Shown: in pieces, positions 1,664-31,909 of the stretch
Position numbering within the stretch: the first letter of the stretch is position 1
Layout of the letters: the number at the start of each line of letters is the position of its first letter
Origin: Cyanidioschyzon merolae
Taxonomy: Eukaryota
Length of the DNA stretch: 64,000 bases
NCBI GenBank assembly: GCA_000091205.1
Contig: AP006500.2
Direction: 5' to 3' (one strand)
Translations under genes and position numbers: made by a program
Notes under the pieces: generated by a model
What the model was told of the DNA's origin: nothing
Databases searched by the model: none
What the model saw: the letters and a program-made list of their open reading frames with translations, nothing else

Positions 1664-3199
1664 ATGACGTTCGTGACGCTACCACTCTGTGCAAGCAGAA
1701 GCGTTGTACCTAGCTTGAAGTGTGCTGCCTGTCGGCGCGGAAGTCGTTTAGGGCTTGGCGGCCGATTAAGGTCGAAGCTGCGTTCCTCCCCTGGCTCGTC
1801 GTCTCTGAGGTGCCTGCAACCTAACGGGACACCTAGTGCAGGGCACCAGGGAAATAAAGCAGGAAATGTGAACACTTTTGGTAAAACTGTTCTTGTTCTT
1901 GGGGGGGATGGATTTTGTGGCTGGCCGACCGCTCTCCATCTGTCAGATCTGGGGTACAGTGTCGTAATTGTCGACAACTTGTCGCGGCGCAAGATCGATA
2001 TCGAGCTGGAGTGCGAGTCCTTGACGCCTATTGCGGCACCGAGCGAGCGCATCGCTGTTTGGAATGCCTTGTCCGATCGCGAGATTCGCTTTGAGTTTAT
2101 GGACGTTGCTCATGAGTACTGGCATTTGTTGGAGCTCATCAAAAGGGAGCAACCCTGCGCTATCGTGCACTTTGCGGAACAGCGGGCTGCACCGTACAGC
2201 ATGAAAGGGAGCCGCCAGAAACGCTATACAGTTGATAACAATGTGAACGGCACCATGAGCGTGCTGACAGCGGTCGTGGAGTCCAACCTGGATATCCATG
2301 TTGTTCACCTGGGCACCATGGGCGTCTACGGCTACGGCTCCAGTGGCGGCAAGATTCCCGAAGGCTACCTCGATGTCGTGCTGCCCTCCGGAGAGCGCCG
2401 CTCGATCCTGCATCCAGCCTACCCGGGGAGTGTCTATCACGCCTCCAAGTGTCTCGATGCGCTGCTGTTTCAGTTCTTTGCAAGGAATGATGGGCTTCGC
2501 ATAACGGATCTGCATCAAGGCGTCGTTTGGGGCACGTTCACCCAGAATACCATGCGCCATGAGCTCTTAATGAATCGTTACGACTACGACTCCGATTACG
2601 GCACCGTGTTGAACCGCTTTTTAATGCAAGCTGCATGTGGGCTGCCTCTTACGGTTTACGGAAGTGGTGGGCAGACTCGAGCCTTTATTCATATTAGCGA
2701 TACGTGCAAGTGTATCGCACTTGCGCTAGCAAATCCGCCTAATCGCGGCGATCGTGTCAAGATCTACAACCAAGTCGCAGAGACACATCGCGTGCGCGAC
2801 CTCGCGGCTCTTGTCGCCCGGAAAACGGGCGCCAGTGTGCACCAAATTCCCAATCCTCGGAACGAGGCCTCCGAGAACGAACTCGATGTGAGCAACCAGA
2901 ATTTTCGTTCGCTTGGCTGGGACCCTGTCACACTGGAGGAGAGTCTGCTCGAGGAGGTGGTTGGTGTCGCGGAAAGATATCGGCATCGCATTCGCCGTGA
3001 CAAGGTCATGCCCAGCAGCTTCTGGAACCGGGAGCGAGAAGAGGCGTGTCGCGCGAATGCGACAAACTCGAGCGACGCACTAGCCGAGATATCGGCTGCG
3101 GCGAGTTCCGAGTGGCGTGATGAGGTGTTAAAGCAGCTGGCCAATGGTGACGACAAGAAACTCGAGCGTATGCGCTCGGCGCTGCGAGATGAACCCTAG
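1664..3199 (+). CDS. SQD1: UDP-sulfoquinovose synthase (SQD1), NAD-dependent epimerase/dehydratase family, with a Ser/Arg-rich N-terminal extension of about 70 aa (putative plastid transit peptide)
   Basis: ATG at 1664, TAG at 3197-3199. Rossmann motif VLVLGGDGFCGWPTALHLSDLGYSVVIVDNLSRRKID. The ORF is collinear with plant and cyanobacterial SQD1/SqdB over its whole length (HLGTMGVYGY, YHASKC catalytic YxxxK, VYGSGGQTRAF). The first ~70 residues have no homologous counterpart and are rich in S, R, L, G. Confidence 0.85.
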   Translation: MTFVTLPLCASRSVVPSLKCAACRRGSRLGLGGRLRSKLRSSPGSSSLRCLQPNGTPSAGHQGNKAGNVNTFGKTVLVLGGDGFCGWPTALHLSDLGYSVVIVDNLSRRKIDIELECESLTPIAAPSERIAVWNALSDREIRFEFMDVAHEYWHLLELIKREQPCAIVHFAEQRAAPYSMKGSRQKRYTVDNNVNGTMSVLTAVVESNLDIHVVHLGTMGVYGYGSSGGKIPEGYLDVVLPSGERRSILHPAYPGSVYHASKCLDALLFQFFARNDGLRITDLHQGVVWGTFTQNTMRHELLMNRYDYDSDYGTVLNRFLMQAACGLPLTVYGSGGQTRAFIHISDTCKCIALALANPPNRGDRVKIYNQVAETHRVRDLAALVARKTGASVHQIPNPRNEASENELDVSNQNFRSLGWDPVTLEESLLEEVVGVAERYRHRIRRDKVMPSSFWNREREEACRANATNSSDALAEISAAASSEWRDEVLKQLANGDDKKLERMRSALRDEP

Positions 3200-4789
3200 A
3201 GCAGTTTACGCAGGTGGCTTGTTACCAAGGTCGCTCCGATCATGCGCTTGCGTGTCGCCAAGCGACGCTAGCAGAAAAGTGCGAATATAGAAACCACATG
3301 ACGTGCGGCCTTCCATTCGGATGAAAACGCTGTCCGAGAGACCGCATCCCAGATATAAGTTGTACCGCAAGGGCTACAAAAAGTAAGTCTAAAGCAACGC
3401 CTGAATCCTGAGACAATAGCATTCGACTCGATCGTTCGCGAAATGGGTATCGCGGACCCATCTGAGCGCATCTACCCAGGACGTGCGGATCCGCACCTGA
3501 GGCCGTCGATGGATAGGATCCACCGTTTAAAGCGCGCTGTTCGCCACGGAAAACCCTACAGCCACCAAGCCAGTTGCCGTGAAGCTCCTCAATGCATCGG
3601 CCAATGCTTCTTCCGACACGGCATTTCCATTGCATGCATATTCAAATCGTACCTGGTACGCGTCTATGTGATCAGCGTATACGTAGCAGCCAGCTGAGAC
3701 GCAGTCGACACCCGCTCCGTTTCCTAAGCTTTCCGAGTAAATATTAAAACTCGTACTGGAAAGAGCCACTGCGCAGACGCAGCCGTCAAGGCGAAGCTCG
3801 CTGATGGAAGCGTCTGTGGAGACATGCGGCATGCCAAGTGCACACGAGTCCCGTTAACCTTTATCAGAAGTGCGTGGGCTTCGTTCCTCAGCGAAGCTGG
3901 TTCAGATACAGGTATTTGAAATAAGATCAGCGCTGAACACTCTGCAGATTGCCAAACCCTAAAAACGCTGTGACACCAAGTACGAAAGAGGCCGCGAACG
4001 TGCCCCACTCGAAAGCACGTCGGGCAAGGCGAAGCTGCGTCTTCCTCGGTTAGAGCAAACGGCGCTTCGGCTCGACACTCGTTCGGCCATAGCGCTGTCC
4101 ACCACGAGCAGCAGAGGCAGCTGCGGTGCAAGGACCGTCGTAGCTGCCACGGAAGTGCTGCAACAGCGCTCACCGAAGCAGCGCACGACTCCGAGTCCGT
4201 CGCGGGGTGGTTCATGAAAACCTGCCCTCGGACTAGGTCTGTCTAGCTACGTACCAACGCCTGTCATGATAGTACGACACCAACTCACATCATCGAAACG
4301 ACAACTCGGGGCAGTATACGCAACACTTGTGGCGCAGTAGAGGCTCGTGTAAAACGGTTTTTAATGCACCTGCTGTTGCCAGCTGTGTCGCCAGCAACTA
4401 AGCTTGCGCTCTGCCGGCTCGCGGGGGTATTTTTGATTACCGGAACATTGACAAGGACACGGAATCCCGCTTTACGTGAGGAAGAGCGGCAATCAAGGAT
4501 CATGCTGCGTATCTTTCTATCAACGGAATGTTTGCAATGACGCGGAATACCTGGTCGCGCGATGGACACCGGTCTCCGGGAAAACCATCCAAAACGCCAC
4601 ACCATACCGGCAAGTTCCAGTGGGCAATACCCTCGCTTCCCGTTAGTCATTCTGGTCACTTGCGACCGATCCACCGCAGGCGCTTTCTCGTCGACGCAAT
4701 GAACAATGCTGCTGCTGCCTTGCACGCGAAGCCGGGCGACTCGAATTGCACACTATCGCTGCAGGCAACGCATCCGTTGGAGCTCCGCA

Positions 4790-5455
4790 TGCAGATACCA
4801 GTATGAAGAGGCGCGAAAAGTCATTCCAGGAACCGGCCTTGAATACCCGAACATCCACCATACCAGAATGAAGAGGCACGAAAAGTCAGAATGGTAGTGT
4901 GCCCTATGTACCCGAACATCCACCACACCAGATTGAAGAGGCACGAAAAGTCAGAATGGTTATGTGCACTACGCACCCGAACATCCACCATACCAGTATG
5001 AAGAGGCACGAAAAGTCATTCCAGGAACCGGCCTTGAATACCCGAACATCCACCATACCAGAATGAAGAGGCACGAAAAGTCAGAATGGTTATGTGCACT
5101 ACGCACCCGAACATCCACCATACCAGTATGAAGAGGCACGAAAAGTCATTCCAGGAACCGGCCTTGAATACCCGAACATCCACCGATACCAGAGTGAAGA
5201 GGCACGAAAAGTCAGAATGGTTATGTGCACTACGCACCCGAACATCCACCATACCAGTATGAAGAGGCACGAAAAGTCATTCCAGGAACCGGCCTTGAAT
5301 ACCCGAACATCCACCGATACCAGAGTGAAGAGGCACGAAAAGTCAGAATGGTTATGTGCACTACGCACCCGAACATCCACCATACCAGTATGAAGAGGCA
5401 CGAAAAGTCATTCCAGGAACCGGCCTTGAATACCCGAACATCCACCGATACCGAA
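4790..5455. repeat. Tandem array with higher-order structure: 130-131 bp unit made of two alternating 65-66 bp subunits sharing the core atgaagaggcacgaaaagtca, about 10 subunits, ending at the G6PD start codon
   Basis: Direct reading: ccagtatgaagaggcacgaaaagtcattccaggaaccggccttgaatacccgaacatccaccatac alternates with cagaatgaagaggcacgaaaagtcagaatggttatgtgcactacgcacccgaacatccaccatac. The 131-bp unit starts at about 4993, 5123, 5254 and 5384, with a variant copy from about 4798. Confidence 0.9.
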
Positions 5456-7369
5456 ATGCAGCGCGACGCGTCCAGGAAAAAATCGCGGCGATATCGAGGC
5501 ATCCGTTGCGTACAAGCAGGTGGAGGTCGCTCTCCAGGAACGATGTTCGTAGCTTTACCAAGTGTGCTGTTCACCAGCAAACCCTCAAGGATACGTACTG
5601 TTAAGATTGAAAAGCGTAGAACGTTATTTGCCTGCGACAGGGCGAAAGCAGGCACCGATGGGAACGCTAGCAACGCTGCGGCGTCAGCACCGAAACCCTC
5701 TGCTGCGAGCAGCGGGCGATCTGCTGGTACTGCAGCTCGAGACCAGGTAACGATCAGTGCCCAGACGAGTTCGTCAAACTCGCGGACGATAGATCGAAGC
5801 ACCGATTCATCGCAAACAGTACAGGTTGCGTCCATGTTTGACTCGATGACGAAGCGCCGTGAGGCTGCTCGCCGCGAGGCGCTGAGCATCGTCGTGCTGG
5901 GCGCGTCCGGGGATCTGGCCCGCAAGAAGACGCTCCCGGCGCTTTTCTCACTCTACTACCACGATCTGCTGCCGAGCGACTTTTATGTGGTCGGCTACGC
6001 ACGATCAAACATGACGAGCGAGGCGTTCCGGAACACGATCAAGTCAAGTTTGACCTGCCGCGTTATCGAAGGCCCCGAGTGCGCACGCAAAATGGAGCAT
6101 TTCCTCTCGCGTTGTTTCTACGTTTCCGGAACTTATCATGAAACTACTGCATTCCGAACGCTGGACGAGTTTCTCGTGAACGAGTTTGAGAAAGAGCGCT
6201 GGAATCGCGGGGTTCCGACCAATCGCCTCTACTACTTGGCGATTCCTTCCAACGTCTTCGCTGAGGCCTGTCGCGGCATCGCCCATGCCCACACCAAGCC
6301 TCCGGAGTCGACCAAGGGCTGGATGCGGGTCGTCTTGGAGAAACCGTTCGGGAGAGATCTGGATACCTTCCAGACCCTGCACCAGGAACTGCAATTGTAC
6401 ATTAGCGAGGAACAAACCTTCCGCATTGACCATTACTTGGGCAAGGAGCTCGTTCAGAACGTGCTGGCGCTGCGCTTTGCGAATTATTTTTTGGAGCCTC
6501 TCTGGAACAACCAACACATCCAATCTATCCAGGTGACGTTCAAGGAGAACTTTGGTGTCGAGGGACGCGCTGGCTACTTTGACCAGTACGGAATCATCCG
6601 CGACATCATGCAGAATCACCTGCTGCAAATGGTGGCGCTCTTTACGATGGAACAGCCGGCTTCTTTGAACGCCGAAGATATTCGTGACGAGAAAGTGAAA
6701 GTCTTGCGCAGTTTGGAAACGCTACGTGCTACAGATTTCGTCATCGGGCAGTATATGGGGTATCGGGAGGAAGACGGCGTTCGTCCGGGCTCCAAGACGC
6801 CTACGTTTGCAGCGTGTCGGATGAACATTCGAAACCGACGCTGGGACGGTGTACCGATCCTGGTCAAAGCGGGGAAGCATTTGGATGAACGCCTCGCGGA
6901 AGTGCGTGTCACGTTCCGCAGTGTGCCTGGTAGTATTTTCTCGCTTGCGAATACCCTGCCGAACAATGAGCTTGTTGTTCGCGTTCAGCCCGACGAAGCC
7001 ATTTATCTTCGCATCGTCAGCAAATCCCCGGGGTTGACCTCTCGCCTAGAAGAGGCGCGTCTGACGCTATTCTACCGGACGGCCTGGGAAGAAGCGCACG
7101 ACATTCCCGATGCCTACGAGCGCCTCATCTTGGACGTCATCTATGGTGACAAATCGCTCTTCATACGAAGCGATGAATTAAAAGTCGCCTGGGAGAAGTT
7201 TACGCCGGCGCTTCACGAACTCGAGCAGAGCGACCGCTATCGACCGGTACCGTACGTAGCGGGCAGTCGCGGCCCTGCCGAAGCCGACTACCTTGCCGCG
7301 CGCTACGGATGCGTTTGGGCCAGCGACCTTGACATTGGCGGCAAGCGACTGCAAAGCAAGGTGCCGTAA
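5456..7369 (+). CDS. G6PD: Glucose-6-phosphate 1-dehydrogenase, plastidic redox-regulated type (C-x7-C regulatory cysteine pair), with an N-terminal presequence
   Basis: The track ORF 5225-7369 runs back through the tandem repeat, so I take the first ATG after the repeat (5456, MQRDAS) as the start; ATGs at 5543 (MFVALPSVLF) and 5834 (MFDSM) are alternatives. Dinucleotide-binding motif VVLGASGDLARKKTLPALF, active-site RIDHYLGKE, EKPFGRD. LTCRVIEGPECARKMEHFLSRCFY matches the thioredoxin-regulated cysteine pair of plant plastidic G6PD (LTCRIDKRENCGxKMEQFLKRCFY). TAA at 7367-7369. Confidence 0.85.
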   Translation: MQRDASRKKSRRYRGIRCVQAGGGRSPGTMFVALPSVLFTSKPSRIRTVKIEKRRTLFACDRAKAGTDGNASNAAASAPKPSAASSGRSAGTAARDQVTISAQTSSSNSRTIDRSTDSSQTVQVASMFDSMTKRREAARREALSIVVLGASGDLARKKTLPALFSLYYHDLLPSDFYVVGYARSNMTSEAFRNTIKSSLTCRVIEGPECARKMEHFLSRCFYVSGTYHETTAFRTLDEFLVNEFEKERWNRGVPTNRLYYLAIPSNVFAEACRGIAHAHTKPPESTKGWMRVVLEKPFGRDLDTFQTLHQELQLYISEEQTFRIDHYLGKELVQNVLALRFANYFLEPLWNNQHIQSIQVTFKENFGVEGRAGYFDQYGIIRDIMQNHLLQMVALFTMEQPASLNAEDIRDEKVKVLRSLETLRATDFVIGQYMGYREEDGVRPGSKTPTFAACRMNIRNRRWDGVPILVKAGKHLDERLAEVRVTFRSVPGSIFSLANTLPNNELVVRVQPDEAIYLRIVSKSPGLTSRLEEARLTLFYRTAWEEAHDIPDAYERLILDVIYGDKSLFIRSDELKVAWEKFTPALHELEQSDRYRPVPYVAGSRGPAEADYLAARYGCVWASDLDIGGKRLQSKVP

Positions 7370-7973
7370 AAACCAGACAGTCCGACTTCCGCCTAGTCTG
7401 GATCGGAGGAGTTTCCAGATGCCCTGGCGATTCCCGAATCCCGGTCGGCGCCTACGAAGCCTACCATCAAGCCGGGCATGCACCGCGAGTAGTCGACGCG
7501 CACAACGCGCTCTACGAAAATCCAAAAGCTCGCGGCACCAGCACTTTACAGCCACAAAACTTGTCTCATGAAAGCGGCGAATAAAACCTCTGTCATCGTC
7601 ATCTGTGAATGTACGGGTGAGGCATCGCGGATCGCGCAGCACAGAACACCTCCACGAGATACACCAGTGAATCGTCGCGATAGCACGTCCGGCTGTGATC
7701 TTTTCGGATACACACACAAGACATGCACTGATGGATTCGCTCAGCGGATACCGCTCGACATGCAATGCCCAGTGCCTGCATCCATTCGTGAACGACGCTC
7801 ACACCTGCACTACGCAACAAGCATCAGCGAGACTTGCGATTCGCCACGCAAAGGATGTACCCGCATTGCCGAAATCGTAGCCGCTATCAAAGTGCAGCGT
7901 TCAACGCATGAAAAACGACTCCGCAATTCCAGTCTATCCTTTTGCTGCATCAACAGTCTCGTTTCGGAAGCGA

Positions 7974-9527
7974 TCAAGCAGGTTTGAAGAATGCCCGAGC
8001 GAGCTGGCGGCGCAGCCAGCGCAGCCACGAGAGCGATCGCGGCAAGCCGAGGCCTCCAAGTGCTCGGAAACGAAAATTGTTCATCGCTCGATTGTACTGC
8101 ACATTGCGGATCCAGGCGGTTGCAGCACACCAACTCCAGCGCTCCGCCTCGCGACGAGCAGCGTCGCCCATCCGTTTGCGCATGACGGCATCGCCGAGTA
8201 GGGCACATACATAGGTTGCAGCCTCGCTGGTGTTGCCCTTGGTGTACAGAAATCCTGTCTCGCCGTGAACAATCAGATCGGGGATACCGCCAGCTGCTGT
8301 GGCAACTACAGGCACACCCGATGCCATGGCCTCCAGTACCACAAACCCAAGGGTTTCGCTCTCTGAGGGCATCACAAATACGTCGGCACAGGCGAATGCT
8401 CGCGATAAATCATCGCCGTGTAGTTGTCCGGTCATGACCACGGGCAGACCTGCGAAATGTCGCCGTACCGTCTCGGCGTACGGTCCGTCACCGACGAAAG
8501 CGAGTCGCGTTCCGGGTGGACAACAGGTGAGGATCCGCTTCAAACTCAGCAGATTCTTCTCGGCACCGAGTCGCCCGATGTAAACCAGCAGCGGCGCGGT
8601 AGGATGGCCATCTGTGAGCCGCGCCCGCATCGCACCACCATCATCGTTGCGGAAACGCGGATGGAAGCGCTCCGTGTTGATGCCTTTTCGCCAGAGGTCC
8701 ACGCGCTCGATGCCGTGTTGTCGAAGTTCTGCGCATATCTGTGGAGACGTCGCCAGCGTCAGGTCTGCGCGATTCAAACAGAAACGCATGAGTGTCCACG
8801 CCAGTCCTATGAGAATCCCTAACCCATAAGTTTTCGCATACATTGGTAGATGTGTGTGATACGATGCAACAAGTGGCTTGCGCAGAACACGCGCCATGAG
8901 AAGGATGGCAAATACCAGGAATCCGGGTGTTGCCAAGTGGATGAGGTCAGGATCGAACTCGCGAACGCGCTGCAGCAAACTGCGCCTTCCGAAAACCATG
9001 CCACTACCAAAGCCGATTGAGAGCGTAATGCGTGGATAGAGTGCAAACTTGAAACCCCGGATGGTTATAACCGGATAACCGAACACTTCTTGCGGTGCGT
9101 CCGGCGAGTTATCGGGGGTTATGATCAATACCTCGTCGCCGGCCTCTTTCAAATACCGTAATAGCTCATTAAAACGATTCGAATACCCGGACACGTGCGT
9201 GAACGGCGTCGGTTCAACCACGAGACACACTCGACGCCGAGGCGCGCGCCGCAGGTCAACGAGGTTCGGGTCATCGCCCGACGTCGGCTGCGGGTACACG
9301 GGACCAGTGGCGACACTCGCCAGTGCGAACGCGCAGCTCGTCCGCGGTACACCCGGTGCCCGCAGCCGGACTGGCGCATAGCGTCGCCTCAAGAGAGCAA
9401 CCTCTAAGGGACACAGCTGCGAGCCGTTTGATGGCGCGCTCTGCCGCCTCAACGTCCGCGCGCACGCGAAAGCGCCAGTGTCCCCGTTGTTAACGCCCAG
9501 GAATGCCGCTGTTCGACCAGTGAACAT
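7974..9527 (-). CDS. SQD2: Sulfoquinovosyldiacylglycerol synthase (SQD2), GT4 glycosyltransferase, with an N-terminal presequence of about 95 aa
   Basis: ATG at 9527 (reverse complement of cat at 9525-9527). Strong collinear identity to plant SQD2: VVEPTPFTHVSGYSNRFNELLRYLKEAGDEV, DLIHLATPGFLVFAILLMAR, SYHTHLPMYA, FVGDGPY, ADVFVMPSESETLGFVVLEAMASGVPVVATAAGGIPDL, and the GT4 EX7E region. The N-terminus is Arg/Ala/Pro-rich. Confidence 0.85.
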   Translation of the reverse strand: MFTGRTAAFLGVNNGDTGAFACARTLRRQSAPSNGSQLCPLEVALLRRRYAPVRLRAPGVPRTSCAFALASVATGPVYPQPTSGDDPNLVDLRRAPRRRVCLVVEPTPFTHVSGYSNRFNELLRYLKEAGDEVLIITPDNSPDAPQEVFGYPVITIRGFKFALYPRITLSIGFGSGMVFGRRSLLQRVREFDPDLIHLATPGFLVFAILLMARVLRKPLVASYHTHLPMYAKTYGLGILIGLAWTLMRFCLNRADLTLATSPQICAELRQHGIERVDLWRKGINTERFHPRFRNDDGGAMRARLTDGHPTAPLLVYIGRLGAEKNLLSLKRILTCCPPGTRLAFVGDGPYAETVRRHFAGLPVVMTGQLHGDDLSRAFACADVFVMPSESETLGFVVLEAMASGVPVVATAAGGIPDLIVHGETGFLYTKGNTSEAATYVCALLGDAVMRKRMGDAARREAERWSWCAATAWIRNVQYNRAMNNFRFRALGGLGLPRSLSWLRWLRRQLARAFFKPA

Positions 9528-13493: not shown

Positions 13494-16400
13494 GATGACG
13501 CCGTCAACGCAACAGGGATGCATCGTACTTGAGGGTCCCCGTATACAGCACTGAGCGAGGGCGAGCTACAGATCCGAACAATGCATTCACGCGAAGTCCA
13601 GTTTGGACCGCACAGCATGCAATATATCATCGTTCATGTACGCGTTATGCCGCTGCATCCGATTCTTTTGGTGACGGGCAGATCGAGCGCGTGAACGTCT
13701 GCATCTGCCCGATAAAATGGACGCTGTTGCGCGCAAAACGCATGCTGTTTCGGGATCATATGTCAAGGAGGCATAAGACCGGCTGAACGCGAGGGCACCT
13801 CTGACAGCGAGCGCAAAGCGCAGAGCACCGCCCGGTACTCGACATCAGTGGAGAGCAGGGCTTGTTTTGGGCGGCAACGAGTCCTCGTTGCCGATAGGCT
13901 GCTGCATTTCAGCAGCGCACTGTCATGCAAAGATAACGAGATAGAGAGTGCGTGCATCACGACACGAGCACGTGTTGAAGTTTGCCTCTAGAGCGATCGA
14001 GGAAATAGCAGGAGTGTCGTACATCGCTCGAGTAATGGCGAAAAATGAATGGTTTGTACTCGGAGCAGTGAGGTTTGAAACAGTCGCGTCAGCGAACGCT
14101 TTTTGTTTTGTTTTCTTTTTGTTTTTCTCACGAGTATAAAACAAATAAAAAATATGTTTTAGATTGGAGCAAGGCTGCGAAAAGGCGTGAGTCTAGTCTC
14201 AGTAGAGTACGGAATAGCGTTATCCTCGCCCAAGTAACGTATTCTTGGGTCAGCAGGTGGATGAATCACCCTTCTCGCGACACTTGTCCTGAACGTCATG
14301 TACCCAAAAGCAGAACTTGTGCAACACTGTCCACGCGACTGTGCGTGTTCGTAAATCCATTCCAGTCCATACGCTGTTCAGGAAATACGATCAAAAAAGC
14401 AGCAGAATGCAAAACTTTCGTACCACGGGTACGAACGTTGATGAAGCGACACAGATGGACACAGGGAAAAGAGCACCCCGCTACGGTAGCCCGTCGAAAG
14501 CGGAACAACACACGATCCATGTCGTCCTCGAACGCGAACACAGCGTCCAGGAGCGATGCGTATTTGTCTCTTTGGAAGCGACTTGAATGAAATGGAGGAC
14601 CTGTATGTAGGTATGCGAAACTTGACAACTCACTGATCGTATCCAAGGGAATCGTGAGCAATTCGACGACATTCACTGTAGCTGCGATGCAAACACGTGG
14701 TAGTCTACAAATCGCCACACGAGCAACTTCGATCAACGCCTCATTCTTTTTCAAGGCAAGCTTCATGGCTTCTCTTCGCCGGATTCTCAAGCCCTGCTCT
14801 TAGACAACGCCGCTTTGCATCGCTCACAAGCTGACAAAAAATACGCTCTTCTTCATGCCAGCCTGTGTTTCGTGAATAAATTCAGACGAAGACTTTTTTT
14901 CAGTGTTGTGCAACGCCATCTCTACGCAAACGGAGCAGCAGATGATTGATTCACATCCGCGACACCGTTCTTTGAAGAATCCTTCGACCATACATGGTTG
15001 TCTGCAATATATACCAGTTCCGTTTTGTTCTGCTGGTCATCTTGACGCGCACCGGAGCGAGAGAAAAGTCCGACTTCGGTCAATGGGCGTGCTGGAGAAA
15101 GAGACGATGACGAAAAGGTGCCTGAGCAATGGTATATGTACATTTAGAAAAGGTGCGATTCGGTGCCACCGTCCACCCGGTCCGTCTGAGACCGCCAAAA
15201 GTAATAATATGGAGTAGAGTGTCCCCAGCGATGCCATCCCGCCAAGCGGGGGCGTTGGCGAAAATGGATCCCGTCTGTGCGAGTACCCATCAAGTATTCG
15301 ATCTACATTGCCATGCGCATTGACGAGGCTCGTTCAAGGTTTCTCGTTCACAGGAAGGAAATGAATACAAGTTGATAAGGACTTGTGCGCGATGCTCATC
15401 GATGCGTTCAGGACCACGTGCTCAACTCATGGGCATGGACGAACGCTGAAACTGGTAGAGAAGAAGCGAACAAAAGAGACCCGAATGCACGACGCGGGGG
15501 TTTGTACGGTACGATGACGGAACGTCAGATGGCAAGGCAATCCATCGCAAGCGGCTCGCGATACGGTCTGATCCCAACAGCCGCCCTGCGTCCGCGTACT
15601 TTCTATACTGAAACTTGAACGCTTCGATTCATACTCGGGAAAGTGTCGTGAATCTGGAGCAGTCAGCGAGTTTTGCGTCATGCGACCTTTGGGGTGAATC
15701 ACGTCGTGGTCATTGTCGAGAACGTACTGAAATACTGAACACTTGCATAGAAAGAAATGTCCGTCTCCAGGAGCGCGCAAGCCGCGGGTCGTCCCCGACA
15801 TCAACGCACTGGAATGGTGCGGTCCGCGATCCAGCACTCTTGATGCACCGTGTATACAAACCAGAAACAATTTTCTTGATGTTTATCAACACACGCAACA
15901 CACGCACCAGCAACCTTGCGGCTCTGTGCACCAGACAATAGACTTGCAGCTTAACAGACCTGCTTCCATGAGTTTATCGAATACGTGCGTCGCCAGCAAC
16001 CCTGCGGCTGCGTGCACCAGACAAGAAACTCCCGACCAAACAGCCCGTCTTCCATAAGCATATAGAATACACGCTTCACGAGCCTCGAAAAGCGTACCGT
16101 TGCGACTCCTTCGCGTGGAAACGCTCGAGCACACACCCGCCGCCTCTGTGGCTTCAGGATACGCGCCGCGCGCTGCCGTTGCCCAGCGCAGCAGCTGCTG
16201 CAACGGAAACGTCAGCGTCTCTCCTCGCCGTTGCCCAGCGCTGCAGCTGCAACGGGTACCGGTTCCACGAGTTTCGTGAATTGACGCTCCAGCCGTCGGG
16301 GTGTAAGGGACACCTATCGACGGCACGCATCGTAAGGCGTTGTGTGCTTCTCCTCAGGTGCTCCGAGAACGCACTCACAAAAGGCGAGCGTCACACTGAG

Positions 16401-16579: not shown

Positions 16580-19500
16580 ATGTCGACGACCTCGTCTTCG
16601 TCAACGGGAGCTGTTTCGGCATCACGTGCTGTAGCGTCGCCGCTCATGAACGGCAAGTCTGGACTTGCTGATGCAGCTCCGGTGCTAACAGCGTCTCGCT
16701 CTACACCACCACCACCACCACCAGCAGCAGCAGCACCAGGCACGAGCACGCGAGCACGAGCAGCGTCGCAGGGTGCGCACGCATCAGAGCGCTGGGGTGC
16801 TGCGAATATGACCAGCTTGCCCGCTCTGGCGTCAGGCTCGTCACAACTTCTCGCTGGCTCGACACACGCGCTCGTAGCGCTTCACGATGCCTCCATTGAA
16901 CGCGCGCTTCGGCGCCTGGAACGCGCGACGGGCTCAGAGAGGCGCTACGAGGCAGCACAACGGCTCCGCATGCTCTATGAACGCAAGTTTCAGACCATGA
17001 AACAGCCTGAGGCCATAAGTGTGCTCAGTGACGCCTTGGCATATCGTTTGCAGGCTATGATCAGCTCGGGGAGTCAGCGGGATCGACTAGCAGGCCTGAC
17101 TGGCCTCAGCGCGCTCATCGAGACGCGCGGCGAGGCGTACCGCACCAAAGTCCAACGAACCTACAACGGCTTGCGTCCTATCCTGAGACGTCCTCCAGAC
17201 TGGGAGGCTGCTCGCGCTGCCGCTGATATGCTGGGCCGGCTCAGTCGACTCGGCGGGGTTCTCGTGAATCGTTTTGTCGAAGCGGAGGCCGTTCGTGCAC
17301 TCGAGTACCTGAATACCAATAGCGTGCTTCTGAAGGGAATGGCAATCATGGTGCTCAATGCTTTATGTGAGCACGTTCCCGCATCCATGTATACCTCGAG
17401 AGTTCAGCTGGCGCAGGTGGTGTGGCGAGGCCTCACCGACAGTCGACCGATTCTTCGCCTGGAGAGTGCCAGCTTGCTGCGCTCCTTCCTCGCCCTACTG
17501 GAACAGCGCGCATCCGATGATAGCGCCCGCACCTGTCAGATGATCATTCAGCGTTGCCTTGAGATGTTGATCTCCGATGAACGAGAAACAACCCCACCAG
17601 AAACGCACGGCAGTTTGTTGGCGCTCCACGAACTCGTGCGGAACCGCTTCTCGGCAACGTTCCTAGACGAGCATATCAGTCGAATACGGAAGCGTCTCGA
17701 GAGCTTACGTCTGACTCGCGATAACCTCATCCGAGCGGCGATTCTCCAGCTGCTTCCAGACTTGGTGCGCCTGGATCGAACACTCATCGAACTCGGCATG
17801 AGCATGGCGCTCGAGAACGAGGACCTGGTTGCCCTGGGGAAACTGGCGGTAGCAGTGGGTCCTACCGCTGCGCTCCCTTGGATGGAGCACATCTTTGTGG
17901 TACTGCGTAATAGCGAGGTCGCAGCGGCAGCGAAACACGAATGCATCGCGCTGTTGGCCCCGATCATCGTGGAAAGCGAACAGAGCGAGCGTCTCGCTGA
18001 GCTCCTGGAAGACTCCATCCTAACGCAGGGTCTGAGTCCCTCGCTAGTCGAAGCCCTGGAACGCGTTTGTGAGCATGTTCCGAGTCTGCGAGACCTGGTT
18101 CACGGGCATGTGCTGCGCCTGTGTGCGGAAACGACGGATATCGCGTGCGCGCTGCAGGCATTGCAACGTTTCACCTTCGGGCGTCGACCCTGTTTGGACG
18201 ACTACGTCCGCCAGCATGTCCTGCCCTACATCTACGGCAAACGCAGCCTCAGATCAGCAGCCTTCGCTGCCTCGCTGCACGTCTTGACTGCAGCCGTCCA
18301 GTCAGCGACTCCAGGGCGGCCGCTTCAACCGAAAATCTTCGAGACGCTACAACAACTGATTGTGGTGGTTGTTGCTGACCCCGACAGCCGCATACGCGCA
18401 GAGGTACTGCTGCACTTGGCCAAGCCGGCGTACTTTCCAGTCTTTGAACGCTACCTTGCGCAACCGGAACTCTTGCGAGCGCTCTGCTTGGCACTTCACG
18501 ATGAGGATGCCACAGTACGCGAGCGAGCACTGAGCCTCGTCGGCCGACTCTCCACGGTGAATCCAGCGCATACGTTGCCCTCTCTCCGTCGCCTCTTCAT
18601 GAATCTACGCATCATTCTCGAATGTGAAAGCGAACCGCTGCAGGGATCCCAGGAGGATGCACTCCGCCTTTTGCTCCGCCTCGTCCAGGATGCACCGCAG
18701 CTGATCGAACCCTACACACCCACAACAGCCAAACTACTGGTGCAACGGCTCCAGCAAAACTCGACTAGTGCAGTTGCCGTCGACACTTCAGTGATACACA
18801 CACTCCACAGCATCGCATGCTTGGCAGAGCGTGGCGTTGCAGCAGAACTCCAAACGCTCCTGCATGATGCCATGCCGCACCTGCTGCGCATCCTGCAACA
18901 CACCTCGGTAGAGGCGGACCTTCGGGAGGCAGTTTGTCGGGCGCTTTCGAGTCTAGCGCGAGCTGCAGGTGCAACCACGGAGCTCTACACCCAATACCCC
19001 AGTTTGCTGTCGACGCTGCTGCGCATGCTGCGAACCGAAACCAACTTGTTCGTGCGTCTGGAGATAGAGCGAACGCTGGGGACGCTCGGAGCGGTGGACC
19101 CCGACCGTACCGCACCGCTACTGCTCGACCGGACGCGGTATCCGTATACACGACTCGAGTCGCTCACGGAGGTGTATCACCAGCAGACCGCTCCAATGCA
19201 TTACGCGCCACGCCCAACCGCTACCGGAACTGGAGCTACGAATGCGTTTACAACGGATACGCGCTGCGGACTCGTGGCCGAGGAGCCGGCCTTGCCAGGC
19301 ACTGCTGCTGCTGCTGCTGCTGCAACGACGACGACGACAACGACGACACTTACTGGACAAGCACTGCGTGCCCAGTTGCGCTTTGAAGCGCCGAACGAGC
19401 TCGAGACGCTGGTAGGTCGACTCCCGCACCCGTTCACGGCAAACGAAGAGTACTTTCCCTCGGCAGCACTGGATGCCTTGCATCGCATCCTCGCGAATGC

Positions 19501-22500
19501 CAAACTGACGACACTTCACTACGACACTGTCGGTGCGATTGTGAACATCATGAGCAGTCTCGGGATGAAGTGTGCACCTTTTCTATCCGTGGTGGTGCCG
19601 CGCCTGCTCTGGATGCTACGGCCGCGAACCGAGGATACGCATGACTTGGCGTTCCGCGAGTACGTCATCCGAGGCCTGGCTAGTGTCGTGCTCTCTGCCC
19701 GCCAATACATACGCCCGTACGCAGCTTCGCTGGTGGCGCTCATTCTCGAGTACTGGCCGCTGCAAGTCCTGCATCGCTCGATGTTCGCCCTAATGGAATG
19801 CCTCCGCGTAGCGCTCCATGATGAATTCCGACCCTTTGTGCCGGTTTTGCTGCCGCTCATCCTGCCCTGGATGTCGTTGCGGGTGCTCAAGGTGCTCTTG
19901 GTGTTCGGCACCCACACCAGTGAGTACGTGGTGCTTGTTTTACCGCCCGTGATGCGTTTCCTGGAGGATGCCACCCGTCCGCTTGCGGCTCGCATTGAGG
20001 TTCTCAAGCGCTTGCCGCGACTCTTCGCCATGCTCGATCTATCGGATATGGCGAGCCAGCTGATGCACCCGCTGTGTCGGATGCTGCGCACCAGTGAATT
20101 CCAGTGGCACGCTCGGCAACTGCTCGAGTCGCTGCTCCCTCGTCTGGGATTAGACGCGGCCTACTACACGTTGCTGGTCCGTGAAATGCTCCTTGGAGAT
20201 GCAGCATCGGCATCAGCAGCAGCAACCGGCAATGACGACGAAGACGATGACGGCAACGACGACGAAGACGATGACCAGCACCCAACGGATGAAGCCAGTG
20301 CTCGTGGTGCAGCGGCATCGACCGAGTCTGCCTCGACACAGGCCGGTGCTGCCCTGCAGTCGAGCAGTGCGAGTGCACTTCACCGCCTCGCACGCTATCG
20401 CCATGAACGCACGGCGCTGAGTCGCTCCGAGTCGCTTGACTCGTTGAATGGTGTACCGCGTACCACGTCACTGGGTTCACTCGCTGACCTAGCCTCTGGG
20501 GATGCGTTGCTGGCTCACAGTCCCGACTCGTTGCTCGACAGCACACACGTATCGCTGGTTGCGTCAGCGTCGATGTTGGATTTGCAGCAGCAGCTACAGC
20601 AACAGCAACAGCAACAGGCGCTCCTGGGAAGCGGTGCCAGCAACACCACCACCACCAACACCAACAACAACAACAACAGCGGCCACAATAGCGCCCGTCG
20701 TCACCACGTCAATGAGAAGATGCTCCAAAAGGCGTGGCAAGTCGGTCGACGCACCACCCGCGACGACTGGAACGACTGGATGATGGCGCTTGCGTCGGCG
20801 CTTTTCCGGGAGAGCGGCTCACCGTCGCTGCGCTCATGTGCGCGACTCGCTGAGGTGCACCCGCCACTCGCTCGTGAACTCTTCAACGCTGCCTTTCTGA
20901 GCTGCTGGACGGAACTCTCGGATCCGTGTCGTGCGTCACTGGTGCGCAACCTGGTACTTGCGCTCTCCAGCGAGTCCATACCACTGGACGTGCTGCAGGT
21001 GCTCCTGAGCCTCGTCGAGTTCATGGAACATGACGAGAAGCCCTTACCCATTGACCTTCGACAACTAGCTGCCATGGCGTTCCGCTGCGGTGCCTACGCC
21101 AAAGCGCTCCGCTACAAAGAGGCCGAGTATATGCAGAACCCGGCATCAGCCATGGAAGGTGACGATAGTCTCATTGCGATCTACGAAGCGCTGGGTCAAC
21201 GGGAAGCAGCAATGGGCGCCCTGCTCGATGCCGAACGTCACCAGGTCACGATACGCCACGAGGCGTGTTACGAGCGGCTCCAGCAATGGGACCTCGCGCT
21301 CAGCGCCTACGAACGTCAGGGACCAGCGCACTCGTTTGCAAACCGGCGCGGTCGGATGCGCTGTATGGCACAACTCGGCGAACTGCACCGCATGGAGGCG
21401 CTCTGTAACGACCTCTGGTCCGAGGCAGCCGAGCAGCCGTCGCTTCGCCAGGAACTCGCTGAGGAAGCGGCTCAAGTGGCGTATCAGCTCCAGCTCTGGG
21501 ACAAGTTTACGGAACGCGTTGCGTATACGAGTCGCGACAGCATCCGCGGGAATGTGTTTCGGGCGATGCTGGCTATTCATCAGGGCGACGATGAGGCTGC
21601 TCGCGGCTATATTCGAGCGGGGCGTCGACTGCTGGATACCGGGGTCACAGCACGCGTCGGTGAAGGCTATCCCCGCGCCTATGGCGATATCCTCCTGACC
21701 CAGCAACTGGTGGAACTCGAGGAATGCCTCATGGTAAGGCAGCGTATTCTACCGCAGCGCCACGTGGTGGAACAGCTCTGGAATACGCGCTTGTACGGAT
21801 GCCGTTTCGATTATACCACGTGGCAACAGACGCTGCTCGTTCGACGGCTCCTCTTGGAACCTCGACACGACAAGGACGTGTGGTTGCGCTTTGTGAGCCT
21901 CTGTAGGCGGGCGAATCGACTCCCGATGGCCAACGAGGCACTCGCCATGCTCCAGGATGAGCAGCATCCCGATCCCGAGGTAACGTATGCTTCGCTCAAG
22001 TTGTGCTGGTCGCAGGGTCGGCATCACGAGGCCTACGAATGCCTCCGGCGTTGTGCGGAGCAGCCGGTACCCTCCGCTCGGCTCGCTGCACGTCGTTTTC
22101 TCAAGCTATGCGTCTGGGGTCGGGCGTTACGCGCAGAAGGCACCAGCACGTTCGTCTCTTCGCCTTCGTCATCGCTACGGTGGCATACGTTGATGGAGCA
22201 CGCGCGACGAGCGGTGGTATCGGATCCGTCGTGGTCATCCGGCTGGCATACCTGGGCAGCGTTGAACGCTGATGCCGCCGCAGCACACAGTACCGGGCAT
22301 CGCTTCGGGGGTGCCTGGCCTGCTCGACCGACAGCGGTAGCGGCGGCTGAGTCTAACGTGCTGGTTCGAGCGTATGTGCTCAACGCGGTGAACGGCTTCT
22401 TCCGAGCGATCGCACTAGGTGAAAGCTACGCGGAACAAGCGCAAGATGTGCTCAAGCTGTTAACGCTCTGGTTCCGCTACGGTGCGGTCCCTGAGATCGA

Positions 22501-24130
22501 ACAAGCGCTCCTGAACGGTTTTGCGGAGACCAATGTCGACATCTGGGTCGACGTGATTCCCCAGATTGTCGCTCGTCTGCACTCGCCGGTACCACCGGTG
22601 CAGGCCGGTGTTCGAGCGCTCCTAATTCGCATCGGGCGAGCACATCCACAAGCGCTGGTGTTTCCGCTCGCAGTGGCCGCCAAGTCCAGTAATGCGCGTC
22701 GACGTGAGGCCGCTATCGACGTGCTCCAGGCGCTGCGTCTCGAGTCACCGGCGCTGGTTGCCCAGGCTGAACTCGTATCCCGCGAACTGGTGCGTATCGC
22801 GGTGCTCTGGCCCGAAATGTGGCATGAGGCACTCGAGGAGGCCTCGCGCGTCTACTTTGGCGAACACAACGTGCCGGGCATGTTGGCGATTCTGTCGCCG
22901 CTGCACGACCTGGTCGAGGCAGGCCCTAGCACCGCACGTGAGGCTAGCTTCATTCGCGAGTTTGGCCGTGAACTCGCCGAGGCTCGCGAATGGTGTCGGC
23001 GCTATCTGGCGAGTGGACGCGACTCCGACCTGAATCAGGCCTGGGAGCTCTACTACTCCATCTTTCGCCGGATCAACAAGTCGCTCTCCAGCATGACACA
23101 GCTGCAACTCGCGGAGGTGTCGCCAGCGCTGCTGGAGGCTCGGAACTTGGCGCTGGCGGTGCCCGGCACCCGCGAACAGGTCACCATCGTCTCGTTTGCA
23201 CCGGTGTTGAACGTGATCAGTTCGAAACAACGGCCGCGAACGCTGACCATCTACGGTTCCGATGGCCACGAGTACCCGTTCCTGCTCAAAGGACACGAGG
23301 ACCTGCGTCAGGATGAACGCGTGCAACAGTTTTTTGGCCTCGTGAATACGCTCCTGCCGCCCGAGATGTCCATCGTGACGTACGCGGTGCTGCCGTTGAG
23401 TCAGCAGGTCGGCCTCATTGGTTGGGTCAAGAACTGCGATACGCTGCACGCGTTGATCCGCGAGTATCGCGAACAACGCAAGATCATCCTGAACGTGGAA
23501 CATCGGATCATGTTGTCTGCAGCACCGGACTACGATAACCTGACGCTGCTCCAGAAAGTAGAAATATTCGAGTATGTGCTCGCGAATACCTCGGGCAATG
23601 ACTTGGCCAATATCATGTGGCTGCGTAGTCGCAGCGCGGAGATGTGGCTGGAGCGACGCACCAACTACGCACGTTCGCTGGCGGTCATGTCCATGGTAGG
23701 GTATATTATCGGCCTCGGGGATCGACACCCGTCGAATATGCTCATCACACGCGACACCGGCAAAGTCATTCATATCGATCACGGTGATTGTTTCGAGACC
23801 GCGATGCATCGCGAGAAGTATCCCGAGAAAGTGCCGTTCCGGTTGACGCGGATGTTGGTACGGGCACTGGGTGTCTCGGGTGTCGAGGGCATCTTTCGGG
23901 TGACATGTGAGTCGACCATGGAGATTCTGCGTGCGAACAAACCCGTGCTCATGGCTATGTTGGAAATCTTTGTGCACGATCCGTTGCTGGTACGAACGCT
24001 GCAGCCGGCGGCGGCACCGGGGGCAACAACCACGGGCCTCGAGGCGACTGGGTTGGCGGCTGTTGCAGCCGGCTCGCCGCTGCATACACCGGCAGTGTGG
24101 CCTCGGCAGGCTACTGGAGCAACAGCAGCA

Positions 24131-24169
<39 letters not shown>

Positions 24170-24793
24170 GCAGCAGCAACAGGGCAATGGGGCACGGTAT
24201 CGACGTTTCCTGTGCAAGAGGCACGCCTTGGCGAGCGTGCTGGCGAAGAGCAGCCGCAGCCAGCGTCGACGCTGGTGCAAGTACCTCGAGCGCCAACCAG
24301 GATGCGACGTGTCGACATGTCGGGTGCAGAGGCGACGGCTGCGGCTGCAGCTGCGGGCGAGGCGTCCTTGTCGTTGCGGCTGCTGCAGGGCACCATGTCG
24401 TTACGTGCAGCGCTTCGTCTGGAGCAGTCCAATGCCGGCACAGTCGAGGAGGTCGCTGAAGAGGGTATCGCGGAGACGCCGTCGCCGCTGACAACGCGTC
24501 GACCAGGTGCGGGTAGTCTAACGCCGCGCACGCTGGGCAACGGTACCTTGACGACAGGTGCCGGTGCTGGTGCCGGTGCTCCCACGATACTTCCCGAGGA
24601 TCTACTCGGCGATGAAAACCGCGGTGAACGCGCTGTTGCGATCGTGCAACGCATGTCACAGAAACTGAGTGGGCGCGACTTTGATCCACGACGTGTGCTC
24701 ACTGTCGCTGAGCAGGTCGAACGCCTGATTCAGCAGGCAACGAACTCAGAGAACCTGGCACCTGCTTATGTGGGCTGGTGCAACTGTTGGTAG
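16580..24793 (+). CDS. TOR: Target of rapamycin (TOR) serine/threonine kinase: HEAT/FAT repeats, FRB domain, PIKK kinase domain, FATC
   Basis: ATG at 16580, TAG at 24791-24793. FRB: WHEALEEASRVYFGEHNVPGMLAILSPLHDLV...AWELYYSIFRRI. Catalytic loop GLGDRHPSNMLI. Activation segment HIDHGDCFETAMHREKYPEKVPFRLTRML (canonical HIDFGDCFE). FATC ending AYVGWCNCW. Single 2737-codon ORF with several low-complexity inserts. Confidence 0.92.
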
Positions 24794-28599: not shown

Positions 28600-29810
28600 C
28601 GTACAGTGCTGGTGCGAGACGCCCGGAGCGTTCCATGCGGTGGGAAACGTCCCCGCCGCCTCCTCCTCCTCCTCGTGCACACAACCGACACCGCCAAAGC
28701 ACAAAGCGTGAAACGTGATCACTGGTACGGAATAGCGTCAACACTGGGTGCTTGTTCATGGATGGGCTATGGACGGTGGTCCCGGGCAGTGCCGTGCGGT
28801 GGGAAACGTCCCCGCCGCCTCCTCCTCCTCCTCGTGCACACAACCGACACCGCCAAAGCACAAAGCGTGAAACGTGATCACTGGTACGGAATAGCGTCAA
28901 CACTGGGTGCTTGTTCATGGATGGGTTATGGACGGTGGTCCCGGGCAGTGCCGTGCGGTGGGAAACGTCCCCGCCGCCTCCTCCTCATCCTCCTCCTCCT
29001 CCTCGTGCACACAACCGACACCGCCAAAGCACAAAGCGTGAAACGTGATCACTGGTACGGAATAGCGTCAACACTGGGTGCTTGTTCATGGATGGGCTAT
29101 GGACGGTGGTCCCGGGCAGTGCCGTGCGGTGGGAAACGTCCCCGCCGCCTCCTCCTCATCCTCCTCCTCCTCCTCCTCGTGCACACAACCGACACCGCCA
29201 AAGCACAAAGCGTGAAACGTGATCACTGCTACGGAACAGCGTCAACACTGGGTGCTTGTTCATGGATGGGTTATGGACGGTGGTCCCGGGCAGTGCCGTG
29301 CGGTGGGAAACGTCCCCGCCGCCTCCTCCTCATCCTCCTCCTCCTCCTCGTGCACACAACCGACACCGCCAAAGCACAAAGCGTGAAACGTGATCACTGG
29401 TACGGAACAGCGTCAACACTGGGTGCTTGTTCATGGATGGGTTATGGACGGTGGTCCCGGGCAGTGCCGTGCGGTGGGAAACGTCCCCGCCGCCTCCTCC
29501 TCATCCTTCTCCTCCGCCTCGTGCACGCAACCGACACCGCCAAAGCACAAAGCGTGAAACATGATCACTGGTACGGAACAGCGTCAACACTGGGTGCTTG
29601 TTCATGGATGGGTTATGGACGGTGGTCCCGGGCAGTGCCGTGCGGTGGGAAACGTCCCCGCCGCCTCCTCCTCATCCTCCTCCTCCGCCTCGTGCACACA
29701 ACCGACACCGCCAAAGCACAAAGCGTGAAACGTGATCACTGGTACGGAATAGCGTCAACACTGGGTGCTTGTTCATGGATGGGTTATGGACGGTGGTCCG
29801 GGTGCAAACC
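28600..29810. repeat. Tandem minisatellite, about 7 copies of a 159-174 bp unit containing a variable (CCT)n tract, immediately upstream (about 140 bp) of the RRM-protein start codon
   Basis: The unit ggtggtcccgggcagtgccgtgcggtgggaaacgtccccgccgcc(tcc)n tcgtgcacacaaccgacaccgccaaagcacaaagcgtgaaacgtgatcactggtacggaatagcgtcaacactgggtgcttgttcatggatgggttatggac recurs with period 159, 159, 171, 174, 170, 172 bp. The track ORFs 28525-29901 (+) and 28466-28918 (-) are translations of this repeat. Confidence 0.9.
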
Positions 29811-30679
29811 TGCTTGGCGGGTACCAACTTGGTCGTGGTTTACGCGTGTGACAAGCGTACCCGAAGCGCGTATCGTCATGAATGGATTTCGTGCTTGGTA
29901 GGCTGCGGACTGGATGCAAAGCTGCTCGATGCAGTGTAGCAGCGGAGTCGATGTTGGATAGCAGCAGTGTTTGGTTGACGTGCATCACTGGGGTTGCGTG
30001 AGTGAGGCATCAGGAATCACGTTATAGAAAAAGATGTATGTCAACGATGAGCACTCAGGGCATGATCGCGGGGGAGTCGAGGTCGCATCATCCGGCATCC
30101 GCAACGATCGAAAATGATGTTGCTTCCCTGCTGTTGGCGGCTATGTGTTCGGTACCAGGTATTGTGTTCGGGTGCAATACGCAACGTCCATCGCTCAACA
30201 AACATGAAGGATAAGTAGCATGGCGGAGGAGTTTCAGAGGAGCGCGGATCCCTGGACCGGTTGCGCTGCTCGCGCTCGGTAAATGTTTCCGATCCTGTTC
30301 TCGGCGAATAGGATCGATATTCAGAGAGCAGTAGTACAGGATTCGGGACACTAGGTCGACTTTTTGAAACGGCTGGTTCGGCGAGTTGCCGCTGCAATTC
30401 ATCAAGTCACTGAAATCAAGATGAATTGTGATGTCGGCGAACACCGGTGCCGCAAAGTAATCCATTTCGCGATCCAATGCATACGTACATGCCTCCACTA
30501 GTCCCATTTGCTTACACGCAGCACGCTGGAATCATGCGCTCTTCAACTTGTCGATCTTTCTGTTCTAAAAAAACTCCCGGGTGTAGTGATTCGCGTGGCT
30601 GGGTCCCCGGGCTCAGAAACTCAACGTCGTGCCTTGACGACTTTATATACAACTCCGGCCGAAATATCACTGAAACGCT

Positions 30680-30900: not shown

Positions 30901-31909
30901 ATCGTAGACGGGGTGGAATTTCTCGACTTGCTCTCTAGCCGAGATTTTCCTTCGGGTTCAAGTTCCATTATGGACGACAATGCGTTCCATGAATCCGGTA
31001 TTAACTGGAACAAAGTGAGTTTTCGTTGGTGCAGAAGAAAGCGATTGCGGTGAGGGCATTGCTCAGAAAAAGCGTGAGATCGTCGAGTACGGCACTGGGC
31101 GGATACCCGGCACAGAGGGTTACCGAGGCGAGCCTTCTCTACCCGTCCAGGGCAGGTACTGGGCTATGAAACAGGCGCATGTCGCACTGCAGGGCGGCCC
31201 ACGGAGCATGCATAATGGTGAATGCACGGGAGTACCTGACGAGTATCCTTTGGAAGCGCTGGGCGGGCCAAACCGGTGCTATATACAAAGAAAATGAAAA
31301 ACGCTCGAAGCGAAGATCATAACCTGCGACTGGGCCTGCATTGCGTCGGTAAAGAAAATGGAAAACGCTCGAAGCGAAGATCATAACCTGCGACTGGGCC
31401 TGCATTGCGTCGATAACAGCGTAGAGCACCGAAATCGGGATTTGAACGCTGTCCCCAACATCCTTCGAATACTGACAACAGAGCTGCAAGAACAGAAGAC
31501 ATCGCCGAATGTACATCCAGAGATAAGAAAGAGTGCGGATAAACAAAACAGTCACCGACAAATCCAGTCATGGCCGGTGTTGATAACATCAGAAACAACC
31601 CACAGCTCTCATGTGAGCGCCCCAGTACGAGCACCCGTTCCAGTTTGATTTGATATGCATATAGACGAACGTGGGAAAACGAACCCCAAACTCTGGATGA
31701 TTTCAAGACATACCCCAGAATATGAGTCCGAGACCAGGATGCATCCGGCAGGGCAGCGGCTGGTTTCGCGTCGCTGGTCGGGTACAGGACGAACACCACG
31801 AGGCCCCAATTAGTTTGCAATCCGAGCGAATCCACTCCGTCGGCACCGCTATCCGAATATCCCCGTCTTTCATCAACAACAGAGCAAGTGGCATGTTGGT
31901 GCTCAAACT

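Follow-up and report, generated by a model that had tools for sequence, protein, structure and literature searches.

Hypervariable minisatellites, or VNTRs, are familiar from human as noncoding, locus-specific arrays of head-to-tail units of tens of base pairs, which can be organized into higher-order repeats as in alpha satellite. Tandem repeats also occur in promoters: the human promoter VNTRs INS and MAOA change expression, and unstable tandem repeats in yeast promoters reportedly do so as well. Another kind of array is formed by the tandem snoRNA clusters of trypanosomatids, Euglena and plants, which consist of short intergenic units. We analyzed a 64,000-nt stretch of the Cyanidioschyzon merolae 10D genome (contig AP006500.2; hereafter the window), in which a tandem array lies in the 5′ flank of a plastid-type G6PD gene. 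We propose that this array is probably a locus-specific, hypervariable minisatellite (VNTR) that has no product of its own and evolves by slippage and out-of-register exchange.

Tandem Repeats Finder (TRF) placed the array at 4795-5452 and described it both as 10.1 copies of a 65-bp period with 73-76% matches and as 4.7 copies of a 131-bp period with 96% matches, which confirms the original prediction of about ten 65-bp units with a 131-bp higher-order repeat. With ATACCAG taken as the start of the register, 4795-5447 resolves into ten units, each 65 or 66 bp long, and ATACC occupies the last 5 nt (5448-5452); the whole lies between the unique flanks GCAGGCAACGCATCCGTTGGAGCTCCGCATGCAG and GAAATGCAGCGCGACGCGTCCAGG. 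Each unit comprises a 29-nt 5′ core (ATACCAGnnTGAAGAGGCACGAAAAGTCA), a 21-nt block, and a 15- or 16-nt 3′ core (ACCCGAACATCCACC, with an optional final G). The block is TTCCAGGAACCGGCCTTGAAT in A-type units and GAATGGTTATGTGCACTACGC in B-type units, and an older variant, GAATGGTAGTGTGCCCTATGT, is carried by a diverged B-type unit designated b. Two alternating unit types had been predicted; both types are indeed present, but their alternation is not strict, the units being arranged as A b B A B A B A B A. The features of the array, to which no strand is assigned, are as follows.

4795-5452: whole minisatellite array, ten units and a terminal ATACC, delimited by TRF, by the units in register and by the confinement of core matches to it
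4795-4859: unit 1, type A, with a private G in GGCGCG; together with the far-end ATACC it matches the single-unit form of eight environmental contigs
4860-4989: unit 2 (b) with unit 3 (B), an older pair of B-type units that have diverged, from the comparison of b with B
4990-5119: units 4 and 5 (A, B), a 130-bp dimer, distinguished from the later ones by a single G insertion and an AAT-to-AGT SNP
5120-5381: units 6 to 9, two identical 131-bp A+B dimers (period 131), with 5120-5250 exactly equal to 5251-5381
5382-5447: unit 10, type A, identical to unit 8
5448-5452: ATACC, a 5-nt microhomology that repeats the opening 5 nt of every unit

The two identical dimers, together with the identity of units 8 and 10, indicate that the latest growth of the array took place in 131-bp steps. 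Between A and B units the core differs at 0-7% of positions, whereas the block differs at 74%, which is the level of unrelated sequence; judged by this comparison, the A and B blocks are mutually unrelated. The b and B units differ at 5 of 21 block positions as opposed to 2 of 44 core positions (Fisher p = 0.03). Allowing up to 3 mismatches, the 44-nt core has seven matches in the 64-kb window, all within the array, where none would be expected, and neither the A nor the B block has further copies in the window at the same threshold. Comparison of the A and B blocks with the core and with each other on either strand detected no significant local similarity. The array has a strong AT skew on the + strand (+0.37 to +0.40 for 4800-5400; 232 A versus 102 T) and a G+C content of 0.48-0.50, compared with 0.53-0.59 in the flanks. 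We also observed an exact 10-nt direct repeat, GCATCCGTTG, at 4770-4779 and 5499-5508, which brackets the array with a spacing of 729 nt in 10D and could be the remnant of an older, larger duplication or a chance occurrence.

The array is located in the 2343-bp intergenic region bounded by the stop codon of an SQD1-like gene, and the features of this neighborhood are given below. As a side observation, G6PD sits between two sulfolipid genes, SQD1-like and SQD2-like (window 1664-9527).

1664-3199, + strand: SQD1-like UDP-sulfoquinovose synthase (Epimerase fold; PF01370, PF16363), upstream neighbor
5453-5542, + strand: unique 90-nt stretch from the array to the start codon, the first 88-90 nt of which are identical in nine environmental contigs
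5456-5458, + strand: upstream ATG, in frame with G6PD and unconserved, the homologues starting at 5543
5543-7369, + strand: G6PD coding sequence, 608 aa, plastid-type, N-terminus MFVALP... (identity to BAM82304.1; PF00479, PF02781)
7974-9527, strand opposite to G6PD: SQD2-like glycosyltransferase (GT4), downstream neighbor

Translation from the ATG at 5543 is 100% identical to the C. merolae 10D G6PD (BAM82304.1 / XP_005538340.1), which traces the window to the finished genome of this strain or to one that cannot be told apart from it. The G6PD proteins of Cyanidiococcus yangmingshanensis (609 and 611 aa) begin with MFVLFP... and MFLVIP..., and that of Cyanidium caldarium (608 aa) with MGFIVP..., and in each case this start aligns with MFVALP. 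Red-algal plastid transit peptides typically have an aromatic residue at the N-terminus, and a Phe at position 2-3 agrees with this. As judged from the cyanidiophyte homologues and the deposited protein, the true G6PD start is the ATG at 5543. The array had been thought to abut a candidate start codon at 5456; that ATG is in frame with G6PD, but the array ends at 5452, which is 90 nt before the conserved start. The intervening 5453-5542 stretch probably holds the core promoter and a short 5′ leader, and the one difference in the sequences compared is a C/A change at 5540, past the end of the 88-nt alignments.

An open reading frame with a GTG start (5225-7369) does run through the array in frame, as had been noted, and it raises the possibility that the array is part of G6PD, either as an N-terminal repeat extension from the ATG at 5456 or through starts within the array. 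No stop codon interrupts this frame between 5225 and the end of G6PD, the ATG at 5456 lies within it, and metagenome gene callers have produced 659- and 673-aa products. Neither the 65-bp nor the 131-bp period is divisible by 3, so that the MHYAPEHPPYQYEE... peptide turns up in three frames and the units are read in different frames. In addition, each frame is interrupted by 4-7 stop codons across the array, alleles of different copy number would change the reading frame, the number of units varies between near-identical relatives, and the MF(V/L) position is where the deposited protein and every cyanidiophyte homologue begin, with a Phe that suits a red-algal transit peptide. For these reasons the array is noncoding, and a coding extension is highly improbable. 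We conclude that the open reading frame through the array is an artefact and not protein, in agreement with the original prediction. A literature search under the G6PD protein accessions found nothing.

We then considered whether the array could be a tandem cluster of small-RNA genes of the box C/D snoRNA type, in which the core would serve as a scaffold and the 21-nt block as a variable guide. The constant 44-nt core next to a variable block superficially resembles such a design. A scan of 4701-5560 for snoRNA boxes identified nine + strand heptamers one mismatch from RUGAUGA, so that nine units carry RUGAAGA; however, the + strand contains no exact box C and no CUGA, and the - strand contains five CUGA and no C-like heptamer, with the result that box C and box D pair at no spacing on either strand of this interval. 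It had been stated that every unit contains ATGAAGA and a downstream GTCAGA. The former is present in seven units, with GTGAAGA in two and TTGAAGA in one; the latter is confined to the five b/B units, the A units having GTCATT.

RNA folding of single units and of dimers (in two registers) on both strands gave no structure better than dinucleotide shuffles (z -0.6 to +1.2) and no terminal stem. Searching the whole window against Rfam at the gathering threshold gave no match in the array, and relaxing the search to E ≤ 10 over 4400-5900 gave three chance matches (CRISPR-DR23, CRISPR-DR29 and nuoG), all outside the array. No tRNA was found in the whole window by ARAGORN, so tRNA-derived or permuted-tRNA units are excluded as far as this program can detect them. 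An H/ACA snoRNA was likewise rejected, with no hairpin more stable than shuffles on either strand and no Rfam match. RNAi machinery is reportedly missing from C. merolae, which also counts against a small-RNA reading. Moreover, there are only three block types, the B types are missing from several alleles, and the sequence is restricted to this locus and absent from the other cyanidiophytes. C. merolae does possess box C/D snoRNAs, but those described are intronic rather than tandem and intergenic, and they account for 11 of the 23 introns that encode stable RNAs (bioRxiv 10.1101/2025.12.01.691491). We conclude that the array lacks the D box, fold and conservation that define a box C/D snoRNA, that the predicted small-RNA cluster is largely refuted, and that such a cluster is very unlikely to account for the array.

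A population check of copy number had been suggested for this array, and we carried it out on about 30 environmental contigs of the G6PD locus, which were retrieved by exact-protein look-up. The flanks of the compared contigs are 98.9-99.5% identical to the window, with no indels in 1591 nt of upstream intergenic DNA. The array itself showed strong structural variation, with eight distinct unit strings of 1-12 units: A (eight contigs), AA (two), AAA (one), AbBA (two), AbBAA (one), AAbBAA (one), the ten-unit AbBABABABA of 10D, and the twelve-unit AbBABABABABA of contig L024. At least 10 more contigs end inside the array. One of the eight single-unit contigs, L033 (Ga0556028_00408), has a 7-bp deletion at the 3′ end of the unit that changes CATCCACCGATACC to CATTACC. 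The b-B pair is adjacent in six distinct environmental contigs (L001, L003, L004, L016, L023 and L024), as it is in 10D.

Identical 3.1-kb flank haplotypes were found with 1 versus 4 units (L022 and L023) and with 1 versus 12 units (L020 and L024), which indicates that some single-unit contigs are probably collapsed short-read assemblies and leaves the range of alleles uncertain. Other differences cannot be attributed to assembly collapse. Many environmental contigs, but not 10D, contain A-to-A junctions and recombinant units in which an A block follows the 5′ variant of the B type (CAGAAT), and the CAGAGT+B unit occurs in 10D and L017 only. The higher-order period is 131 bp in 10D, whereas the 12 units of L024 (Ga0504772_0000800, 1-821) have a four-unit period of 261 bp, with 98.6% self-identity at that lag. 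Separate lineages have thus expanded the array independently. Both flank haplogroups include alleles that have b/B and alleles that lack it, which indicates repeated contraction or exchange. No other feature of the locus changes nearly as much as the array.

The tendency of short-read contigs to break or collapse at the array raises the question of whether the repeat was created or inflated by mis-assembly in the first place. The finished 10D genome, described as "100% complete", agrees with the window, and independent assemblies of many samples hold the same units, up to 12 of them in one contig, so the chance that the array is an assembly artefact is practically negligible. The array has the properties of a minisatellite or VNTR, namely head-to-tail noncoding units that are polymorphic in number and order at a single locus, with the reservation that some low counts may be collapse. 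Of the outcomes anticipated in the original prediction, a neutral minisatellite, put forward there as the scenario that would refute it, is the best fit.

The array is also restricted in its distribution. A 20-nt core sequence searched against the whole metagenome contig collection matched four contigs of the G6PD locus and, by chance, one unrelated coding sequence. Cyanidiococcus G6PD is 78% identical and the order SQD1-G6PD-SQD2 is common to C. merolae and Cyanidiococcus (L007, 6953-15428), while in Cyanidium only G6PD and SQD2 are still close, with an ankyrin gene between them. Upstream of G6PD we found no tandem repeat and no alignable DNA in Cyanidiococcus, and no repeat counterpart and no alignable DNA in Cyanidium. 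When the whole region between SQD1 and G6PD was compared with the upstream regions of both relatives by blastn at word size 7, it gave only 11-16-nt chance matches (E ≥ 0.23). The presence of the core at one locus and its absence from relatives indicate that the array is young and limited to the C. merolae lineage and to a single locus. No literature on minisatellites of Cyanidiophyceae was found beyond telomeres, and the array is not mentioned in the resequencing note or in the paper on the 100%-complete genome (Nozaki et al. 2007, PMC1955436).

How could a minisatellite of this kind have formed? The single-unit allele reads ATACC, ~60 nt, ATACC, a textbook substrate for duplication through slippage or microhomology. 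We suggest that a unique segment of ~65 bp between the 5-nt ATACC direct repeats was duplicated by replication slippage or by microhomology-mediated exchange, with ATACC as the likely slippage or duplication junction. The second unit type (b/B), with its unrelated 21-nt block, would have arisen once, and the array would later have grown and shrunk as sister chromatids or homologues recombined out of register. A misalignment by one unit would provide 44 nt of uninterrupted homology and a misalignment by two units 131 nt, which may be the basis of the two-unit steps; exchange would then favor such steps and give rise to the 131-bp repeat in 10D and, independently, the 261-bp repeat in the environmental lineage. 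The recombinant units suggest that exchange within the core occurs as well. Exchange of this sort would homogenize the core over all units and the blocks only within a type, and this would explain the contrast between block and core in the comparison of b with B without selection. The better conservation of the core could instead come from constraint on the 44-nt core, for example as a putative binding site. The clean replacement of a 21-nt block is the array's one odd feature, for which the local-similarity comparison gave no donor.

The position of the array relative to the start codon led us to consider the promoter. There are 17 ATGs within the array, in addition to the in-frame ATG at 5456, so a transcript that starts further upstream would be poorly translated or translated from the wrong start, and the transcription start site is therefore probably within 5459-5542. 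The most probable place for the array is the proximal promoter, immediately before the site where transcription begins, and not the leader of the mRNA. A search for 10D contigs derived from transcripts, run as exact look-ups of 10D G6PD in its 608-, 511- and 507-aa forms, found none on record. That the repeat would be embedded in the promoter had been proposed originally, and the location part of that proposal is supported by an array that ends 90 nt upstream of the start and whose 17 ATGs argue against a translated leader.

Such a location brings up the possibility that the array is a selected cis-regulatory "rheostat", in which the 44-nt core or the palindrome TTCCAGGAA of the A block is a putative transcription factor site and unit number sets G6PD transcription. 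This could act through site multiplicity or through altered spacing or nucleosome occupancy of the proximal promoter, and the copy-number alleles would then be functional variants. Besides the proximity to a conserved start, the far better conservation of the core than of the block and the nearly invariant 90-nt stretch downstream are consistent with such a role, for which yeast promoter repeats and the human promoter VNTRs are a precedent. However, the conservation of the core is explained equally well by exchange that is possible only in the shared core. No known motif was identified, the DNA upstream of G6PD in Cyanidiococcus and Cyanidium has no comparable element, and B units are wholly missing from several alleles. 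Motifs picked out by eye, namely E2F-like TTTCGTGC, STAT/GAS-like TTCCAGGAA and an HSE-like element, were rejected as one-mismatch or spacing-variant matches without support. We therefore consider a selected rheostat unlikely. Copy number may still shift upstream promoter elements or multiply putative binding sites and in this way modulate G6PD transcription, an effect that we regard for now as small or neutral.

The window contains five further minisatellites identified by TRF, which suggests that such arrays are common in the C. merolae genome.

15907-16070: 86 bp x1.9
28659-29799: 171/345-bp higher-order repeat x5.7
31287-31416: 64 bp x2
36195-36508: 79 bp x4
53116-53819: 65/92 bp x6

The three large arrays among these are 160-220 nt upstream of the first ATG of long open reading frames with Pfam domains (an RRM protein, a NusG/SAP protein and an M50 peptidase). 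Together with the G6PD array, all four large arrays of the window are thus start-proximal, at 90-220 nt, with a combined p of 0.04 for placement within each intergenic region (n = 4). This point, which would favor a regulatory role, is only suggestive of a more than random placement, and the other arrays have no motif in common with the G6PD array. Their unit variants differ by SNPs and by changes in CCT/CAT microsatellite length, with no block swaps. A look-up through neighboring genes for environmental versions of two of these arrays found none on record. We also weighed a broader reading in which C. merolae keeps hypervariable minisatellites directly upstream of starts, and the G6PD array forms an allelic series (1-12 units, in hot springs) that tunes plastid NADPH with the 44-nt core as a binding module. 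This is quite unlikely; if true, it would be the algal counterpart of the "evolvable" promoter repeats of yeast.

Additional observations were made elsewhere in the window. A 379-aa open reading frame (28762-29901, +) runs through the 171-bp array, with all of its Pfam matches sub-threshold, and like the one through the G6PD array it is a spurious repeat open reading frame. A 758-aa open reading frame (40630-42906, +) carries a C-5 cytosine DNA methyltransferase domain (PF00145, E = 2e-21). CAG/AGC trinucleotide runs at 24118-24182 and 20585-20617 fall within a 2737-aa TOR-like open reading frame (16580-24793) and probably encode poly-Gln or poly-Ser tracts in this TOR kinase homologue.

Our results correct the view of the array as a small-RNA cluster that touches the start of G6PD, as it is not such a cluster and does not touch the real start. 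Annotation pipelines should stop G6PD short of the array, into which the metagenome gene callers did extend it. The array offers a ready marker of high discriminating power with which Cyanidioschyzon populations can be typed in hot-spring metagenomes, and it is a known breakpoint of short-read assemblies. If copy number does affect G6PD transcription, which is speculative, C. merolae would offer a clean system for promoter-repeat evolvability outside fungi, and it is suited to such tests because knock-ins by homologous recombination are possible.

Among known systems, the tandem snoRNA clusters resemble the array in their short intergenic tandem units with one box-C-like heptamer per unit. The array differs from them in that it has no D box, terminal stem, stable fold or Rfam match, no conservation between species, and unit types that are lost in some alleles, and in that the box C/D snoRNAs reported so far from C. 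merolae are intronic. The promoter repeats of yeast and of human INS and MAOA are similar in lying ~100-750 bp upstream of a start and in varying in copy number among close relatives; most of those in yeast have shorter units, and the likeness is one of position and instability alone. The closest match is to the hypervariable minisatellites, with which the array shares an interspersion of variants that differs between near-identical haplotypes, recombinant units, multi-unit periods that arose independently (131 and 261 bp), and microhomology at the boundary. It departs from them in its small size (1-12 units), in its occurrence in an extremely compact, repeat-poor algal genome of 16.5 Mb, and in the complete replacement of a 21-nt block as opposed to scattered substitutions. 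On the strength of these comparisons of sequence, the G6PD array appears to be a fresh instance of the known minisatellite or VNTR kind, for which the promoter reading is probably right on location and only hypothetical on function.
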